From Escherichia coli (GTDB lineage Bacteria > Pseudomonadota > Gammaproteobacteria > Enterobacterales > Enterobacteriaceae), in NCBI RefSeq assembly GCF_003018115.1, contig NZ_CP027457.1: a stretch of DNA of 64,000 nt; one strand, written 5' to 3'. This document shows positions 2,582 to 56,955 of this stretch, piece after piece. The translations under genes were made by a program, and so were the position numbers. Within the stretch, counting starts at the first letter, position 1. Every line of letters starts with the position of its first letter. The notes under the pieces are model-generated. The model saw only the letters and a program-made list of their open reading frames with translations. It made no database searches and was not told where the DNA came from.

Positions 2582-3634
2582 ATGTTTTTAGCATCATTGT
2601 TGAGACGTATTGTATTTAGTTACTACGATTATAAAGCTTATAATTTCAATATTGAAAAAACAGAGTTTGTTGTTATCCATATTCCCGATCAGATTGGCGA
2701 TGCTATGGCCATCTTTCCTGTTATTCGGGGGCTTGAATTGCATAAAATTAAGCATCTTTTAATTGTAACGTCGACAATTAATTTAGAAGTCTTTAATGCG
2801 CTCAAACTTGAACAGACTAAATTAACATTAGTCACAATGACTATGCAGGATCACGCAACATTAAAAGAAATAAAAGATTTAGCGAAGAACATAACACAGC
2901 AATACGGTACGCCGGATCTTTGTATAGAGGCGATGCGTAAAAAGAACCTGAAAACGATGTTATTTATCAGTCAGTTGAAAGCAAAAACGAATTTTCAGGT
3001 TGTTGGTTTAACCATGAAGTGCTATTCCCCTTTGTGTAAGAACGCGTCCCGGATGGATCAGAATCTCCGGGCTCCTGTACCCATGACATGGGCATTTATG
3101 ATGCGGGAGGCGGGTTTTCCAGCAGTCAGGCCAATATATGAATTGCCACTAAGTGAGGATGTACTCGATGAGGTGCGCGAGGAAATGCGATCGTTAGGAG
3201 CTTACATTGCGCTCAATTTAGAAGGTAGCTCGCAGGAACGTACATTTTCACTATCGATTGCAGAAAATCTAATAGAAAAAATTCAAAGTGAAACAGATAT
3301 ACCAATAGTGATCGTTCATGGACCAAAAGGGGAAGGTAAAGCCAGGGCATTAGTGGATTGTTATAATAATGTCTACCGTTTATCCTTATCACCCTCGATT
3401 AAACGTTCAGCAGCAATCATAAAAGATGCTTATATCGCAATAACTCCTGACACCTCAATATTACATATGGCAAGTGCCTATAATACCCCCGTTGTTGCAA
3501 TTTATGCTGATTACAAAACGCGATGGCCCGCAATGGCCGATGTTTCGGAGTCAGTCGTCGTTGGGCAAAAAATTGACAATATAAGTCTGGATGAATTCGC
3601 AAAGGCATTAAAAAGTGTTTTGGCGAGAATATGA
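2582..3634 (+). CDS. yeeL: Putative glycosyltransferase, GT9 (heptosyltransferase-like) family, apparently intact (~350 aa)
   Basis: Continuous ORF; ATG at 2582 preceded by GGGAGG; C-terminal motif region ...TPDTSILHMASAYNTPVVAIYADY... resembles GT9 enzymes. Position between shiA and yeeJ fits yeeL. Start could instead be the upstream in-frame codon at 2519. Confidence 0.6.
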   Translation: MFLASLLRRIVFSYYDYKAYNFNIEKTEFVVIHIPDQIGDAMAIFPVIRGLELHKIKHLLIVTSTINLEVFNALKLEQTKLTLVTMTMQDHATLKEIKDLAKNITQQYGTPDLCIEAMRKKNLKTMLFISQLKAKTNFQVVGLTMKCYSPLCKNASRMDQNLRAPVPMTWAFMMREAGFPAVRPIYELPLSEDVLDEVREEMRSLGAYIALNLEGSSQERTFSLSIAENLIEKIQSETDIPIVIVHGPKGEGKARALVDCYNNVYRLSLSPSIKRSAAIIKDAYIAITPDTSILHMASAYNTPVVAIYADYKTRWPAMADVSESVVVGQKIDNISLDEFAKALKSVLARI

Positions 3635-3850
3635 GGCAGTACTTATGAATAGTAATGCCGATCTGTTATGAACGGTGGTGTCATCAATACTCTGAGGCTG
3701 GTCAATCATCACAGAAAACCAGCCTTTAGATCAAAGCAGTACTCACCGAAAATGATCATAGTCACATCGAACGCGATTCTGGCGGTGCAGCATTTTTATT
3801 TATTCATTTTCTGTGAGAGAAGGGCAAGCTCTATAGAGGGAATGTAAAAA

Positions 3851-3876
3851 AGAGTGCCCCGAATGGAGCACTCTTT
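3851..3876. terminator. Hairpin between convergent yeeL and yeeJ (possible bidirectional terminator)
   Basis: Inverted repeat AGAGTGC...GCACTCT flanked by A/T runs, sitting between the two convergent stop codons. Confidence 0.4.
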
Positions 3877-3895
3877 AAGAAATTATAACGGAAAA

Positions 3896-11878
<7,983 letters not shown>

Positions 11879-12191
11879 GCTTACCTTCCCTGAACGAGCT
11901 AACATAAATGCGCCCTTTCTAGCACAGCGAAAAAATGTAAATCCTGATAGCAATATGATTGAAAATTAATAACTTTTCGTTAGGCAGTTTTGGGGGTGAG
12001 TTGCAAGAGGGGAGACTACTGAATAACTCAAGTTTTATAATCGAGGGGAAAATGGTGATGGCGTTCATAGCAAAACGCCCTCAACCATAAAGGTCGAGGG
12101 CGCTTAAGATGTTAAAAACCCGCTATCCGTTAAAAAACAATGTTCAACTAAGGTCAGTGACATTGCGCTAAAAAAGCGAATTTTTAGAATT

Positions 12192-12267
12192 TGGCTCCTC
12201 TGACTGGACTCGAACCAGTGACATACGGATTAACAGTCCGCCGTTCTACCGACTGAACTACAGAGGA
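12192..12267 (-). tRNA. asnT: tRNA-Asn (GTT)
   Basis: Reverse complement reads TCCTCTGTAGTTCAGTCGGTAGAACGGCGGACTGTTAATCCGTATGTCACTGGTTCGAGTCCAGTCAGAGGAGCCA, the canonical E. coli tRNA-Asn with CCA end. Confidence 0.9.
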
Positions 12268-12367
12268 ATCGTGTGAACGGGGCGCATATTACTTAGCGGT
12301 ACCTTGTCTGTCAACACTAAATTTCATAAGTCATTTCAATTGGTTAATTAATCTGCAAAGTTGTTAA

Positions 12368-13165
12368 TTAATGAACATTCGTCGCCGAAAACGAGTCTGT
12401 ATCATTAGCGTGATGCAGTCTCTGCAAAGGATCTTGTTGATAAAATTGGCAGAAACGTTGCCACAATGAAGGGAAACGAGGAGCAAAAAGTTCTGGGGCG
12501 CTAAAGAAATATTCAGAAAGTACGGCAAAACATTCAGCAGGATCACTGGCAGCATAAGCATCAATGCTCGCCGCATTCTCGCCAACCAATTCGATTTCTT
12601 CCTGAATGTTGTTCATTGCAGCATGAAGATCGTGTTCCCAGCCAGCAACCTCACGCAACGGAATAAAGGGAACACCGCTGGCGCGATCGCCGTTACGGGT
12701 GTCCAGCTTATGAGCGACTTCATGAATAATCAGGTTAAAACCAGAAGCATCAAAAGAATCTTGTATATCCAACCAGTTCAAAACGATAGGCCCTTGCTGC
12801 CAGCTCTGACCTGACTGAACAATACGTTGGTTATGCACCAGACCGATATCGTCTTCCCATTCATCATCGACCACAAATGGCGCAGGATAAATTAAGACTT
12901 CATGAAAACCATCCAGCCATTCCAGTCCTAACTCCAGAACGGGTAGGCAAAATAGAAGTGCTATCCGGCAGCTTCTTAATGAATCCAGTTCAAAGCCCTG
13001 TAAAGGAACAAGCCGCTTTTGCTGTAAAAAACGTTCGGCAAGAGTGACTAATTTGCTTTGTTCCTGTTCCGTCAGACACGTTAAAAGGGGGATCGATAGT
13101 GCTTCCTGCCAGGGAAGGGCAGTTTGATGTGCTGATTCTTGTACTTTCCAGGGCCACTTAATCAT
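12368..13165 (-). CDS. mtfA: Mlc titration factor A (zinc-dependent peptidase-like), ~265 aa
   Basis: ORF with N-terminus [23 protein letters not shown]... after trimming the track's upstream extension; contains an HEXXH-like motif (IHEVAHKLD). Confidence 0.85.
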
Positions 13166-13258
13166 CGTTTTGCTCGCAAACTCGTCACTTGAACAAAATT
13201 GCACGGACAGGGACTGTTAAAATGCCAAATTTCCTGGCATCATGGCAACCATCTGAAC

Positions 13259-13348
13259 GGAGAGATGCCGGAGCGGCTGAACGGACCGGTCTCGAAAACC
13301 GGAGTAGGGGCAACTCTACCGGGGGTTCAAATCCCCCTCTCTCCGCCA
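13259..13348 (+). tRNA. serU: tRNA-Ser (long variable arm; CGA anticodon type)
   Basis: Sequence GGAGAGATGCCGGAGCGGCTGAACGGACCGGTCTCGAAAACCGGAGTAGGGGCAACTCTACCGGGGGTTCAAATCCCCCTCTCTCCGCCA matches E. coli tRNA-Ser. Confidence 0.9.
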
Positions 13349-13917
13349 CTTTATCAATGACTTATCTCCCGACTTCCCGCCTTGCTTTTCCTAAACAGAA
13401 CAATCGTAGAATATTCTTGAAGGGTTAGATCGTCACTGTTTTCTGTTCGATACTGTGACATTCAGCACTTGATTCGCTATGGATCTGACAGGAAGCTTTC
13501 GAGCGAAAATGTGCAGTTATTCAGTCGTTTTCTTATCGCTCACCATTCTTCTTTTAGACATTCATCCTATGAAACTGCCGCAAAGTTGGTGGTGGGAACT
13601 GAAGTTGCGTAGAGAAGGGGTCAATAATTGAGTCAAAAAAGGAACGCGGCCGTCAGATTAAAGCCGCGGGACAAAGTCCATAATTTCCAAGAGTTGTTGA
13701 ATTTCCCAGCTTTTTTGAAAGCCTTTGTATCATACTAACAAGTAAAAAAGGTTTAAATACCAAAATTAACCTGTATTTTTGATAAGTCTTACCATTGTAC
13801 GATTTACACAGTTTCTGCTCCTCCTTGTTGATAGTGGAAAGGGTGCATTGTGCACTTGCGTAAACATTTATGACGCGTTGATGTCCATGGTTCACATTTC
13901 CTTGTCAGGGGATCGAC

Positions 13918-14448
13918 TTATTTGCGGCGAGGCATCATTCGTAACAGAGTATTATCTTTCTGAATGTAGTGATGAAAGAGTGCTGCGCCAGCGTGAGCTG
14001 CGATTAAAAAGTAGCCTATATTTGCCCAGGTTTCGTGAATATTTTTTATCAGTGCTTTAATTTCGCTGTTTGGGGTAACAAAGGGAGACACATTGAAACC
14101 AAGGAAACTCCACGATTTTCCACTGTAAGCCATTAAAGCAATCCCCAGCAGAGGAAGCGCAAGGAAGGTTATATAAAGCATGATGTGCATTAGCGAAGCC
14201 GCTTTCATTTGCCAGGCAGGTGGCGGTGGCACAATAGAAGGATCACTATAACGGTGTTTTATAATCAGGCGTGAAAACATTAACACCCAAACGAATATAC
14301 CCGCATTGTAATGTGTTTCTCGCATCAGCAGATAAGTACTACTACCTTTAGGAAACCAGCCACGGAGTTCCATCGCGGCATAGGTTATTGCAACGAAAAG
14401 CAGCGTTATCCAATGTAAATAAATTTGAGTTTTTGAGAATCGGTTCAT
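13918..14448 (-). CDS. yodB: Cytochrome b561 family membrane protein (~176 aa)
   Basis: ORF with N-terminus MNRFSKTQIYLHWITLLFVAITYAAMELRGW...; multiple TM helices and conserved His residues. Confidence 0.8.
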   Translation of the reverse strand: MNRFSKTQIYLHWITLLFVAITYAAMELRGWFPKGSSTYLLMRETHYNAGIFVWVLMFSRLIIKHRYSDPSIVPPPPAWQMKAASLMHIMLYITFLALPLLGIALMAYSGKSWSFLGFNVSPFVTPNSEIKALIKNIHETWANIGYFLIAAHAGAALFHHYIQKDNTLLRMMPRRK

Positions 14449-21562: not shown

Positions 21563-22756
21563 TTAGAACTGGTAGACTAAGCCCACAGCAACGATATCAT
21601 CGGTAGCGATGCCGTTTGCTTCGTAGAAGTCATCGTCGTTGTCCAGCAGGTTGATTTTGTAATCAACATAGGTGGACATGTTTTTGTTGAAGTAGTAGGT
21701 CGCACCAATATCAACGTATTTAACCAGATCTTTATTGGTGTAACGTGGGTCGCCGTTGCCGTCATGAGCCCAACCGCCTAAATCCTTACCTTTAGATTGC
21801 AGGTAAGCGATGGACGGGCGCAGGCCAAAGTCGAACTGATACTGAGCAACAACTTCAAAGTTTTGGGTTTTGTTAGCGATGGCTGATCTTGATTCACCAT
21901 TATCAAACTCGCCACCACCATATGGGGTCATATTGCGAGTTTCAGCGTACATAGCTGCTAAATACACATTATTAGCATCATATTTTGCACCAACAGTCCA
22001 TGCTTCAGCGGTTTCACCACCAGCATTTCTGTTGCTATGGTTACGATCATTTAAACCAACTCCAACCTGACGATCTGAACGATCAGAGTTTGAATATGCA
22101 GCACCCAGACTTAAACCGAAGTCGAAGTCATAGGAAGTGGACATACCGAAACCATCACCATTTTCTTGAGCAATGTCCCGACCCTTACCCTTACCAGAAC
22201 CTTCCTGACCGAATGGACCACCGTTTTCGTTATTACTCTGATATTGCAGAGCAAAGTTCAGGCCATCGACCTGACCAAAGAAGCCATTGTTACGGTAGGT
22301 TGCAACACCATTAGCACGACCGTTCATGAAGTTGTCAGCGCCAGCATAGGTATCGCCACCAAATTCTGGCAGCATATCGGTCCATGCTTCTACGTCATAT
22401 ACGACACCGTAGTTACGACCATAGTCGAAAGTACCATTCTGACCAAAGCCTAAACCTGCAAATGCCAGACGCGTTGCAGTATTACCTTTGTCGCTTTCAG
22501 TACCGTTTGCGCCAATGTTAAATTCCCACTGACCGTAACCAGTGAATTGATCAGCGATCTGAGTTTCACCTTTGAAACCGATACGGGCATATGACATGTC
22601 GCCATCGCTGCCAGAATCATCAGAGAAGTAGTGCAGACCCACTACTTTTCCGTACAAATCCAGTTTATTACCATCTTTATTATAGACTTCAGCCGCATTT
22701 GCTGCGCCAGCAACTAATAACGCCGGGACCAGCATTGCCAGAACTTTTCTTTTCAT
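21563..22756 (-). CDS. yedS: General bacterial porin, OmpC/OmpF family, apparently intact (~397 aa)
   Basis: Signal peptide [21 protein letters not shown], porin N-terminal motif [16 protein letters not shown] and C-terminal ...[18 protein letters not shown] upstream of ATG at 22756. Confidence 0.8.
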
Positions 22757-44106: not shown

Positions 44107-44439
44107 GTTTTGTAACCTGTTGTTGATTACATCCGATCTCACCGCGTGGGGCATGGATGGGGCAAATTCACTCATTTTCTGGTTTAAAATGGATACCTGA
44201 TCCTGAAAGTTTTCTGCCATCCACGATCTGTATACGCGATAACATGTTTTGTCTTCGCTTTGCTCATAGGAAGAGTGAACTCTTTTGTTAGCCTGGGGTT
44301 CCTTCTGATCATTATTGTTCCTGCCTTTATCTCTTGCCACGCCAGAGCCCCCTGGATACACATACACCAGGATGAAAACGGTGAGTTGTGTTCAAACTGT
44401 AGTACAATTCTCTCCAGTATGAACAGGAAAGAATATGCT

Positions 44440-44772
44440 ATGAACCCTTATATTTATCTTGGTGGCGCAATACTTGCAGAGGTCATTGGTACAACCTTAA
44501 TGAAGTTTTCAGAGGGGTTTACACGGTTATGGCCCTCTGTTGGCACAATTATTTGCTATTGTGCATCATTCTGGTTATTAGCTCAGACACTGGCTTATAT
44601 ACCTACAGGGATTGCTTATGCTATCTGGTCAGGAGTCGGTATCGTTCTGATTAGTTTGCTTTCCTGGGGATTTTTTGGTCAACGACTGGACCTGCCAGCC
44701 ATCATAGGCATGATGTTGATTTGTGCCGGTGTGTTAGTCATTAACTTGTTGTCACGAAGTGCACCGCATTAA
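44440..44772 (+). CDS. emrE: SMR-family multidrug efflux transporter (EmrE-like, 110 aa)
   Basis: Sequence MNPYIYLGGAILAEVIGTTLMKFSEGFTRLW... with the conserved membrane-embedded Glu (AEV); near-identical to my recollection of K-12 EmrE. Track ORF is over-extended upstream. Confidence 0.8.
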   Translation: MNPYIYLGGAILAEVIGTTLMKFSEGFTRLWPSVGTIICYCASFWLLAQTLAYIPTGIAYAIWSGVGIVLISLLSWGFFGQRLDLPAIIGMMLICAGVLVINLLSRSAPH

Positions 44773-44940
44773 AAAATAATCATCCTTGAGATAACAGGAA
44801 TCTGATTTGTGCATATTATGGCTAATGTTCGGGGCAACTTTATAATTATGATTGCATTTGCGCGATCATTGCGCCTTTTTGCATAATGAGATCAAGGCAC
44901 ATCAAATAAAATAACGATAGGTCACAACAAAGAGGTTTTT

Positions 44941-45492
44941 ATGAAAAAACTTATCGTTTCAAGTGTATTGGCATTCATAACATTTTCTGCGCAGGCCGCA
45001 GCATTTCAGGTCACTAGTAATGAAATAAAAACAGGAGAGCAACTTACAACGTCTCATGTATTTTCTGGATTTGGGTGTGAGGGGGGTAATACATCGCCCT
45101 CATTAACCTGGTCTGGTGCTCCAGAAGGCACCAAAAGCTTTGCCGTAACTGTGTATGATCCAGATGCGCCTACAGGCAGTGGATGGTGGCACTGGACTGT
45201 TGCTAATATTCCAGCAACGGTAACATATTTGCCCGCTGATGCAGGAAGACGTGATGGTACAAAACTTCCGACTGGTGCTGTCCAAGGCCGAAATGATTTT
45301 GGCTATGCGGGATTTGGTGGAGCATGTCCTCCCAAAGGAGATAAACCCCATCATTACCAGTTTAAAATATGGGCTCTAAAAACTGATAAGATTCCTGTGG
45401 ATTCTAATTCCAGCGGAGCGTTAGTTGGTTATATGCTTAATGCCAATAAAATTGCAACCGCTGAGATAACACCCGTTTATGAGGTAAAGTAG
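44941..45492 (+). CDS. Periplasmic PEBP/RKIP-family protein (YbcL-like, 183 aa)
   Basis: Signal peptide MKKLIVSSVLAFITFSAQA and PEBP core (DPDAP...HHY); resembles the DLP12-encoded YbcL. Confidence 0.75.
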   Translation: MKKLIVSSVLAFITFSAQAAAFQVTSNEIKTGEQLTTSHVFSGFGCEGGNTSPSLTWSGAPEGTKSFAVTVYDPDAPTGSGWWHWTVANIPATVTYLPADAGRRDGTKLPTGAVQGRNDFGYAGFGGACPPKGDKPHHYQFKIWALKTDKIPVDSNSSGALVGYMLNANKIATAEITPVYEVK

Positions 45493-45501
45493 GATAAGAG
45501 T

Positions 45502-46299
45502 ATGCTGGCAAAAGATAGGACTAACCTAAAGATTGAAGAAATACGGATGCATAAACATCATGAGATTCACAGGGTTAAGCCTCTTATGCCAGCTTTATGT
45601 CGTATCCGTCAGGGAAAAAAAGTTATCAATTGGGAGACGCATAGTCTAACTGTTGATAATAATCAGATAATATTATTTCCCTGTGGATATGAATTTTATA
45701 TTGCGAATTACCCAGAAGCAGGTCTTTATCTTGCAGAAATGCTTTATTATCCCATTGATCTAATTGAAAAGTTCCAAAATCTTTATGCGATAACCGATCA
45801 AATTCGTAACACGACAGGTTTCTGCTTACCTCAGAATCCCGAGTTAATATATTGTTGGGAGCAACTAAAAACATCTATTTCCCGAGGCTTCTCAACGCAA
45901 ATTCAGGAACACTTAGCAATGGGCGTTCTACTTTCATTAGGAGCACATCATGTTAATTGTTTACTTTTATCAGATAGTAAACAATCATTAATAAGTCGTT
46001 GTTATAACCTAATGCTATCCGAACCTGGAACAAAATGGACAGCAAACAAGGTAGCGAGATATCTCTACATTTCTGTTTCCACATTGCATCGCCGTCTGGC
46101 AAGCGAGGGAGTAAGTTTTCAAAGTATATTGGACGACGTGAGGTTAAATAATGCGTTGTCTGCTATACAAACGACAGTAAAACCCATCAGCGAGATTGCC
46201 AGAGAAAGTGGTTACAAGTGTCCTTCTCGTTTTACTGAAAGGTTCCATAATCGTTTTAAGATAACACCAAGAGAGCTAAGAAAAGCGTCCAGAGAGTAA
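45502..46299 (+). CDS. AraC/XylS-family transcriptional regulator (YbcM-like, 265 aa)
   Basis: C-terminal AraC-type HTH (...[30 protein letters not shown]); AGGA RBS 9 nt upstream; starts 10 bp after the PEBP gene stop (operon-like). Confidence 0.7.
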
Positions 46300-46800
46300 A
46301 AGTATTTTATGAAGGAGCAACAGCATCGATTTTTATTTTGGAAAATAAATACGGCATACTCAACCTATTGGAGCCTGAACAATCCGGTGACTTCTGCGCT
46401 AATCGGGGACGTTTATAAGCACATATAATTGATACTATCTTCCTCCATCACAATTTCAGAAATGCACGTGTGATTTTTTTGCATCCGGCGTTTGGACTAT
46501 GTGGAGTTCAAGAGTGGGAAAGTTACAAGAGGTTGAGGGGATAATTAAAGGGATGCTTATGACATTAGATATCCGGTTAGGTACGGATATCGTTGTTATT
46601 AAATCTAATTGATACGTTAATTGTTCACTGAGTATTATTAAAAATGGGGCGTTGAAACGCCCCAGAAAATAAAGGGTAATATATAACAGAAGGTTTATAT
46701 AGTCAGAAGCAAGATAGTGCTTCTAAGGAAAGTGGTTTGAGGGCGCCACTTATATGTTGGGGAGGCAAAGCCTCCCACAACATATCTTTGAGTAATCAGA

Positions 46801-47883
46801 TTAGAACTGGTAAACCAATCCTACAGCAACGATATCATCGGTAGCAACGCCAGATGCTTTCGTGAAATCGCTCTTATCAATCAGGTTGATTTTGTAATCA
46901 ACAAAAGTGGACATATTTTTGTTGAAGTAATAGGTTGCACCTACATCAATATATTCAACCAGGTCCTGATCACCCCACGCACCCAAGTCTTTTCCTTTAG
47001 ATTGCAGGTAAGCAACGGACGGACGCAGACCGAAGTCGAACTGATATTGTGCAACTACTTCAAAGTTTTGTGCTTTGTTGGCAATATGGTTATTACCAAA
47101 AACAGTCATGTTCTGGGTTTCAGAATAGGTGGTAGCCAGATAGATGTTGTTCGCATCATATTTCAGACCAGCTGCCCATACTTCAGCATTTTGACCAGAT
47201 GCATTCAGGCTGTTGTTACCGTAGATAACCTGATCATTAGTGCGGTCAGATTTAGCATAGGTTGCACCTACACCGAATCCTTCATACTCATAAGTAGTGG
47301 AGAAACCGAAACCATCACCGTTAGCTTCAGTTACGTCAGTGCGGTCATTTTTACCCTGATACTGAGCAGCAAAGTTCAGACCATCAACCAGACCAAAGAA
47401 GTCGTTGTTACGATAAGTTGCAACACCTGTGGTGCGACCAGTCATGAACACATCTGTTTGGGTCCAGGTATCGCCACCGAATTCTGGCAGAACGTCGGTC
47501 CATGCACCGATATCGTATGCTACACCGTAGTTACGGCCATAATCGATGGAGCCGTAGTCACCGAATTTCAGGCCAGCGAAGGCAAGACGGGTTTTATCTT
47601 TGGAAGAACCTTGAGATTCAGCACGGTTGCCTTTGAATTCATATTCCCACTGACCGAAACCAGTCAGTTGATCGTTGATTTGAGTTTCGCCTTTGAAGCC
47701 CAGACGAACATAAGTTGTGTCGCCATCATCTGCATCGTTAGAAGAGAAGTAGTGCTTAGCATTAACTTTTCCGTACAGATCCAGCTTGTTACTGTCTTTA
47801 TTGTAAATCTCTGCTGCCTGAGCAGACATCGCCATCAGTACTGATGCAGCTACAGCAGAAATTGCCACTGTTAATTTTTTCAT
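46801..47883 (-). CDS. General bacterial porin, OmpC/OmpF family, NmpC/Lc-like (360 aa)
   Basis: Signal peptide [23 protein letters not shown], motif [17 protein letters not shown]-terminal ...[10 protein letters not shown]-terminus matches my recollection of NmpC-type porins. Confidence 0.8.
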
Positions 47884-48394
47884 CGTGAGCCCTTTTATTT
47901 GAACTATTATTTAAAAATGATGTCACTGCACCACAAATATTCATCTAATCAATGAGATTATTTCAAGATGTAAGTTTTAGTTTCTCATTTAAATTGTGAA
48001 GTAGATCCCTATTTTTATCTGAACTGTTTCTATTGCACACAATGCATGACTATTTTGTGAACGAATATAAATTTGGTAGTCAAATTATATTAAAGGTTGT
48101 TATTTATGATTGACTCATAATTTATTTTTTTAATTTAAATAGCCTGAAAATAACTATAGAAATTATTTGTATGATATTTGTTTAGATTTATTAATGTAAT
48201 TTAGGTGGTTTTATTTAATACGCAATATAGCGCCGCTTGATATTAGTTCTATTTTTTTGCGTAAGATAGATGAGACAAAACTGAGACGCATAATGGTTTG
48301 CAAGGCTCTAATACTTTGATGTTGAGGATGTGATGGGGCATGTACGGGCATAGTACAATGATGTCCATGCAGGTGTAGATAATCTCCAGGCTTA

Positions 48395-55275: not shown

Positions 55276-56955
55276 ATGGCACAAGTCATTAATACCAACA
55301 GCCTCTCGCTGATCACTCAAAATAATATCAACAAGAACCAGTCTGCGCTGTCGAGTTCTATCGAGCGTCTGTCTTCTGGCTTGCGTATCAACAGCGCGAA
55401 GGATGACGCCGCGGGTCAGGCGATTGCTAACCGTTTTACTTCTAACATTAAAGGCCTGACTCAGGCTGCACGTAACGCCAACGACGGTATTTCTGTTGCG
55501 CAGACCACCGAAGGCGCGCTGTCCGAAATCAACAACAACTTACAGCGTATCCGTGAACTGACGGTTCAGGCTTCTACCGGGACTAACTCTGATTCGGATC
55601 TGGACTCCATTCAGGACGAAATCAAATCCCGTCTGGACGAAATTGACCGCGTATCCGGTCAAACCCAGTTCAACGGTGTGAACGTACTGGCGAAAGACGG
55701 TTCGATGAAAATTCAGGTTGGTGCGAATGACGGCCAGACTATCACTATTGATCTGAAGAAAATTGACTCTGATACTCTGGGTTTGAGTGGATTTAATGTG
55801 AATGGCAAAGGGGCTGTGGCTAACGCAAAAGCGACCGAAGCAGATTTAACGGGGGCTGGTTTCTCTCAAGGAGCGGTGGATACAAACGGAAATAGTACTT
55901 GGACAAAATCAACCACCACCAATTACTCAGCTGCAACAACTGCTGACTTGTTATCGACCATTAAGGATGGCTCTACTGTTACATATGCAGGGACAGACAC
56001 CGGATTGGGGGTCGCAGCAGCAGGAAATTATACTTATGATGCGAACAGTAAATCTTATTCCTTCAATGCCAATGGTCTGACGGGCGCAAATACCGCAACT
56101 GCACTCAAAGGTTACTTGGGGACAGGTGCTAACACCGCTAAAATTTCTATCGGTGGTACAGAGCAGGAAGTGAATATTGCCAAAGATGGCACTATTACAG
56201 ATACGAATGGTGATGCGCTCTATCTGGATATTACCGGCAACCTGACTAAGAACTATGCGGGTTCACCACCTGCAGCAACGCTGGATAACGTATTAGCTTC
56301 CGCAACTGTAAATGCCACTATCAAGTTTGATAGCGGTATGACGGTTGATTATACTGCAGGTACTGGCGCGAATATTACAGGTGCATCCATTTCTGCAGAT
56401 GACATGGCCGCAAAACTGAGCGGAAAGGCGTACACTGTTGCCAATGGTGCTGAGTCTTATGACGTTGCTGCAGTTACGGGGGCTGTAACAACTACAGCAG
56501 GTAATTCACCTGTGTATGCCGATGCAGACGGTAAATTAACGACGAGTGCCAGTAATACGGTTACTCAGACTTATCACGAGTTTGCTAATGGTAACATTTA
56601 TGATGACAAAGGCTCGTCACTGTATAAAGCTGCAGATGGCTCTCTGACTTCTGAAGCTAAAGGGAAATCTGAAGCAACCGCCGATCCCCTGAAAGCTCTG
56701 GACGAAGCGATCAGCTCCATCGACAAATTCCGCTCCTCCCTCGGTGCGGTGCAGAACCGTCTGGATTCCGCAGTCACCAACCTGAACAACACCACTACCA
56801 ACCTGTCCGAAGCGCAGTCCCGTATTCAGGACGCCGACTATGCGACCGAAGTGTCCAATATGTCGAAAGCGCAGATCATTCAGCAGGCCGGTAACTCCGT
56901 GCTGGCAAAAGCTAACCAGGTACCGCAGCAGGTTCTGTCTCTGCTGCAGGGTTAA
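55276..56955 (+). CDS. fliC: Flagellin (H antigen), 559 aa, with a long central variable domain
   Basis: Conserved N-terminus ([54 protein letters not shown]) and C-terminus (...[12 protein letters not shown]); the Thr/Gly/Ala-rich middle is allele-specific. Confidence 0.9.

Follow-up and report, generated by a model that had tools for sequence, protein, structure and literature searches.

A very probably native and unoccupied asnT attachment site in a 64-kb segment of an Escherichia coli chromosome

Genes for asparagine tRNA serve as insertion sites of genomic islands in enterobacteria. The pks island is reportedly inserted at asnW, and ROD21 is said to be inserted at asnT in Salmonella Enteritidis. 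The usual site of the Yersinia high-pathogenicity island (HPI) is asnT, and both sides of this gene have been described: in MG1655, yeeJ is found directly downstream of asnT (PMC5595812), and yeeI (= mtfA) is located directly upstream of the HPI where the island is inserted at asnT (PMC2606025). The HPI of strain SCEC020007 is of the ICE type, occupies 58 kb between yeeJ and asnT, and has a 17-mer at both junctions; its cargo consists of restriction-modification genes, a type IV secretion system, the fyuA-irp-ybt genes and an integrase. Among the HPI-occupied genomes used here for comparison, a P4-like integrase gene lies about 160 bp or less from the 3′ end of the tRNA gene and is followed by ybtS-ybtX-ybtQ-ybtP. 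A different, non-HPI island was also found at asnT. When queried with the int-tRNA region of the HPI, it showed a decayed integrase region about 81% identical to that of the HPI, and it carries an RHS element as well; the yeeJ homologue at this occupied site is N-terminally incomplete, a loss similar to that seen in genomes with the common "fixed" HPI of E. coli.

The DNA analysed here is a 64-kb stretch of an E. coli chromosome (the window). Its genes are arranged in the order amn-shiA-yeeL-yeeJ-asnT-mtfA-serU-yodB-zinT-msrQP-hiuH-hprRS-hchA, followed by the fli region and ending near sdiA, and no integrase gene was found in the whole 64 kb. The window is collinear with the genome of strain 2824 at 98-99.4% identity, save for two variable patches; for positions 1-25000, the best full-coverage match among 5,426 complete E. 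coli genomes has about 98.7% identity.

Both ARAGORN and Rfam assign the anticodon GTT to the tRNA-Asn gene, the 3′ end of which faces the lower coordinates, that is, the yeeJ side. The gene is flanked by mtfA and serU at its 5′ end and by yeeJ at its 3′ end, a synteny that marks it as asnT. An Rfam scan of positions 11600-13500 with E<=1 returned nothing above the gathering scores except the two tRNAs; the sub-threshold matches (sX4 and plastid motifs) overlap the tRNAs and were dismissed as noise. The features of the locus are listed in Table 1.

Table 1. Features of the asnT locus and its neighbours, in window coordinates
Feature	Position	Strand	Basis and details
yeeJ, inverse autotransporter adhesin, intact, 2,660 aa	3896-11878	minus	ORF and translation; RefSeq annotation of the collinear strain 2824
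yeeJ upstream region and 5′ leader	11879-12068	minus	Shine-Dalgarno-like GGAAGG ahead of the ATG
Likely intrinsic terminator of asnT	12069-12105	minus	14-bp G+C-rich stem, 5-nt loop, then UUUUGCU
Long imperfect hairpin in the asnT 3′ trailer	12113-12186	minus	-19.8 kcal/mol, z -3.3
Candidate 17-bp att core, CCAGTCAGAGGAGCCAA	12191-12207	minus	Last 16 nt of the tRNA gene plus 1 nt
asnT, tRNA-Asn(GUU), 76 nt, CCA encoded	12192-12267	minus	ARAGORN; Rfam RF00005, 72.6 bits
Promoter-like site of asnT	12286-12314	minus	TTGACA, 17 nt, TAATAT, then G+C-rich discriminator; consensus scan, 10/12 matches
mtfA (yeeI), core gene 5′ of asnT	12368-13165	minus	RefSeq annotation of collinear genomes; ORF list
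serU, tRNA-Ser(CGA)	13259-13348	plus	ARAGORN; Rfam

A preliminary description of this locus, made from the letters of the sequence, had regarded asnT as unoccupied, with neither an integrase nor a duplicated att site between the tRNA gene and yeeJ. The analysis bore this out on each point. A search of the 64 kb that tolerated up to 3 mismatches found CCAGTCAGAGGAGCCAA only at the 3′ end of the tRNA gene, and a blastn-short search of the window with the whole tRNA found only the gene itself, the remaining matches being 7-14 nt long with E>=0.8. Neither an HPI-type integrase nor ybtS-ybtX-ybtQ-ybtP is located beside the tRNA gene in the window. Positions 11500-13950 align with K-12 BW25113 along their full 2,451 bp, where 16 substitutions and 0 gaps give an identity of 99.35%; thus there is no insertion relative to the classical HPI-negative reference.

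The comparison with island-bearing strains that the earlier description had proposed was also made, and the flanks of the window match the outer flanks of the occupied junctions. On the left of the core, all 50 window nucleotides compared agree with the outer flank of the SCEC020007 junction next to yeeJ (attR); on the right of the core, all 40 nucleotides compared agree with the tRNA side of the junction next to the integrase (attL) in the same strain. The left-flank match was found in two occupied attR loci and the right-flank match in three attL loci. The junction in the window is therefore composed of the outer attR flank, the core and the outer attL flank, as in an unrecombined attB. These data make it very probable that the asnT site of the window is the native, unoccupied attB of the E. 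coli chromosome backbone. The empty state is the correct reading of the locus and an ordinary one; it is already described in the literature and is nothing new.

The state of the locus in the species was surveyed in the 5,426 complete E. coli genomes. The contiguous arrangement yeeJ-spacer-asnT-mtfA, counted where at least 80% of a 751-bp probe was matched, was present in 2,644 of them (about 49%), and these were taken as empty. An HPI-type integrase directly beside asnT-mtfA was found in 2,065 of the 5,426 (about 38%) and other arrangements of asnT in about 13%, so that the earlier remark that asn tRNA genes are hotspots for islands holds for asnT, where the HPI-type integrase is widespread and some genomes carry a different island. 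In the occupied genomes, the probe match breaks at probe positions 488-508, corresponding to 12187-12207 of the window, which is exactly the core. The spacer between asnT and yeeJ was present anywhere in the genome in 3,004 of the 5,426 and absent from roughly 2,400; the latter fit the published common HPI, in which the right repeat and the adjacent backbone are lost and yeeJ is truncated (PMC2606025, PMC5595812).

Searching species-representative genomes with the exact 32-nt junction returned a single contig, JAEWTL010000009.1, labelled "MAG: Bacillota bacterium". Positions 3319-5171 of this contig are 98.7% identical to the 5′ end of E. coli yeeJ plus the asnT spacer, and the contig is probably mis-binned E. 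coli DNA. Its match to the window ends at the 17-bp core and is followed by 3.3 kb unmatched in the window, which indicates an occupied-type (attR) junction.

An empty site may also be a vacated one. If an island had once been present and had left by precise excision mediated by integrase and excisionase, attB would have been restored without a scar, and the resulting sequence would be the same as that of a site never occupied. HPIs of the ICE type that retain the two direct repeats as well as an intact integrase do exist at asnT, and in about 360 genomes (3,004 versus 2,644) the spacer is kept and split from asnT, so excisable configurations are present in the species. Against this, the common E. 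coli HPI cannot excise, having lost its right-hand repeat together with the adjacent backbone (PMC2606025), and the roughly 2,400 genomes without the spacer agree with such a non-excisable island. The flanks in the window are K-12-like without any indel, and past occupation has no positive evidence in its favour. We therefore consider a former occupation unlikely and retain the native attB as our reading of the site.

The spacer itself (11879-12191) was then considered as a possible integrated element. The preliminary description had put the start of yeeJ within about 300 bp of the tRNA 3′ end, and the measured distance is 313 bp. The spacer aligns with that of K-12 without gaps at 99.3% identity. 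It contains no integrase; its longest ORFs are 49 and 43 aa, so that no integrase fits into it. The 49-aa ORF at 11919-12068 was rejected as spurious, because in 3 of 7 aligned strains a 1-nt deletion stands right behind its ATG. RefSeq annotates nothing within the spacer in nearly all listed genomes.

That these 313 bp are, or hide, a small or decayed integrated element is highly improbable. Two observations could be read in its favour: a 9-nt direct repeat, CAGTGACAT, is present at 12155-12163 and 12216-12224, and the asnT trailer forms a long hairpin. The repeat, however, aligns to positions 44-52 of the tRNA and not to the core at its 3′ end, and its match is at chance level (E = 13), with about 1.5 such 9-nt pairs expected in 900 bp by our estimate; it was accordingly rejected as an att remnant. 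The 17-bp core has no second match in the window even with 3 mismatches. In occupied genomes the spacer lies outside the island, beyond attR, and is thus backbone; it occurs once per genome in the 3,004 genomes and carries no conserved ORF.

That the tRNA gene is another asn copy (asnU, asnV or asnW), to which the comparison with the HPI at asnT would be inapplicable, has next to no probability: the four asn tRNA genes do share an identical sequence (a median of 4 matching places per genome) and RefSeq labels this one only "tRNA-Asn", but the mtfA(yeeI)-serU and yeeJ flanks are those of K-12 asnT and agree with the published positions of yeeJ just downstream of asnT (PMC5595812) and of yeeI just upstream of the HPI (PMC2606025).

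Three parts can be told apart within the spacer. The 190 bp next to the ATG of yeeJ are highly conserved, with few substitutions among the 7 aligned strains. The stem-loop at 12073-12105 is nearly invariant in the same strains, and both RNA folding and its inverted repeat point to a stable structure (-25.5 kcal/mol, z -6.9); it is likely the terminator of asnT. Its U-tract is short (UUUUGCU). A simple consensus terminator scan did not flag it, probably because only four U's are left after the longest stem. The trailer hairpin at 12113-12186, for which 0 of 200 shuffles folded as well, varies more across the 7 strains than the rest of the spacer; the 7 aligned variants are 98% identical, a variation too small for covariation in this hairpin to show. 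A small hairpin had earlier been noted at about 12108-12133, and this detail did not stand: positions 12100-12140 are unfolded on both strands (-1.9 and -0.6 kcal/mol; z +1.25 and +0.97). Probably it was the terminator stem-loop that had been seen and set about 30 nt too far to the right.

A working model of the locus can be proposed, in which the mechanism of the integrase and the functions of the promoter and terminator are inferred from published knowledge. The promoter-like site listed in Table 1 would serve as the gene's own promoter, and the transcript of asnT would cross a trailer of about 120 nt and most likely end at the stem-loop 12073-12105. The 17-bp core is a candidate attB, that is, a putative substrate for recombination of attP with attB: P4-like tyrosine integrases of HPI-type islands would recombine it with the attP of the excised circular island. 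Such an integration would regenerate the 3′ end of the tRNA gene and put int beside it, and the core would be duplicated, with its second copy on the side of the spacer and yeeJ. Neither of these products, the adjacent int or the second core, is present in the window, which therefore bears no trace of such an event.

The empty state also makes read-through from asnT conceivable, since the predicted strong asnT promoter and yeeJ are co-directional, with only the structured 120-nt trailer and a single terminator between them. The expression of yeeJ could draw on asnT transcripts that are read through or processed, or the hairpin 12113-12186 could be a functional tRNA-derived 3′ external-spacer RNA; we regard this as speculative and quite improbable. 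In MG1655, a yeeJ-lacZ fusion shows no expression unless pnp (PNPase) is mutated (PMC5595812). If asnT read-through did occur, it might explain the derepression of yeeJ-lacZ in pnp mutants, and the insertion of an island would uncouple yeeJ from asnT.

The yeeJ gene next to the unoccupied site is complete. Its ATG is at 11878, and the start, ATGGCTACGAAG, encodes MATKKRSGEE, the same start as in RefSeq. The gene has 7,983 nt, which is exactly the 7,077 nt of K-12 plus 906 nt; this length makes it the long UMN026-type variant, for which PMC5595812 describes three additional Big domains. Internal repeats of yeeJ (7453-8234 versus 8154-8843) are 86-88% identical.

Several other parts of the window deserve mention in their own right. 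A second tRNA integration site, serU, is also empty: 569 bp (13349-13917) separate it from yodB, as in K-12. A lambdoid prophage with a frameshifted integrase begins 27 bp past serU in AUSMDU00014361 and 64EVA. Between fliE and yedK, the window has a variable module of 4.1 kb (44244-48379), which by Pfam encodes an EmrE-like SMR transporter, a YbcL-like PEBP protein, a YbcM-like AraC regulator and an OmpC/NmpC-like porin, genes which we take to resemble the cargo of the DLP12 prophage of K-12. The module has no integrase. It is contiguous in only 455 of the 5,426 complete genomes, and strain 2824 has a DUF5503 pseudogene in its place. The central part of fliC (55811-56674) has no alignment in strain 2824, which is otherwise collinear; we read it as the expected H-antigen variable region. 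Intact ORFs were found for a yeeL-like family 9 glycosyltransferase (2582-3634, plus strand) and a yedS-like porin (21563-22756, minus strand); yeeL and yedS are presumably pseudogenes in K-12.

Taken as a whole, the window represents island-free backbone with an intact long-variant yeeJ, and its source strain has no HPI at asnT, the usual site of the island. Since asnU, asnV and asnW lie outside the window, the strain may carry an HPI or the pks island elsewhere. The result has little importance beyond annotation, and the survey updates the frequencies of the occupancy polymorphism at asnT.

Compared with the known systems, the locus shares its target with the islands and its arrangement with K-12. 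The non-HPI island found at asnT, the pks island and ROD21 all use an asn tRNA gene as target, at its 3′ end, as the HPI does, and none of them is present in the window; the tRNA-proximal junction of the non-HPI island differs from the window by one base, right after the CCA. As for the Yersinia HPI, the core of the window, CCAGTCAGAGGAGCCAA, is the same 17-mer that bounds the ICE-type HPI of SCEC020007 on either end and that is present at the attL of the common HPIs. In the window it is single and is accompanied by neither int nor the ybt, irp and fyuA genes, so that the site corresponds to the substrate of the integration reaction and not to its product. Genomes with the common "fixed" E. 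coli HPI (Schubert et al. 2009, PMC2606025) have the same tRNA gene and mtfA-side flank as the window. Behind the tRNA they carry int-ybtS and the rest of the island, which the window lacks, and they have lost the right repeat, the spacer and the 5′ part of yeeJ, all of which are intact here. The HPI-negative reference K-12 (MG1655/BW25113) has the same order of yeeJ, 313-bp spacer, asnT, mtfA, serU and yodB, and it shares the terminator hairpin and the att core with the window; the two differ in yeeJ, which is 7,077 nt long in K-12 and is present in the window as the long variant of 7,983 nt.
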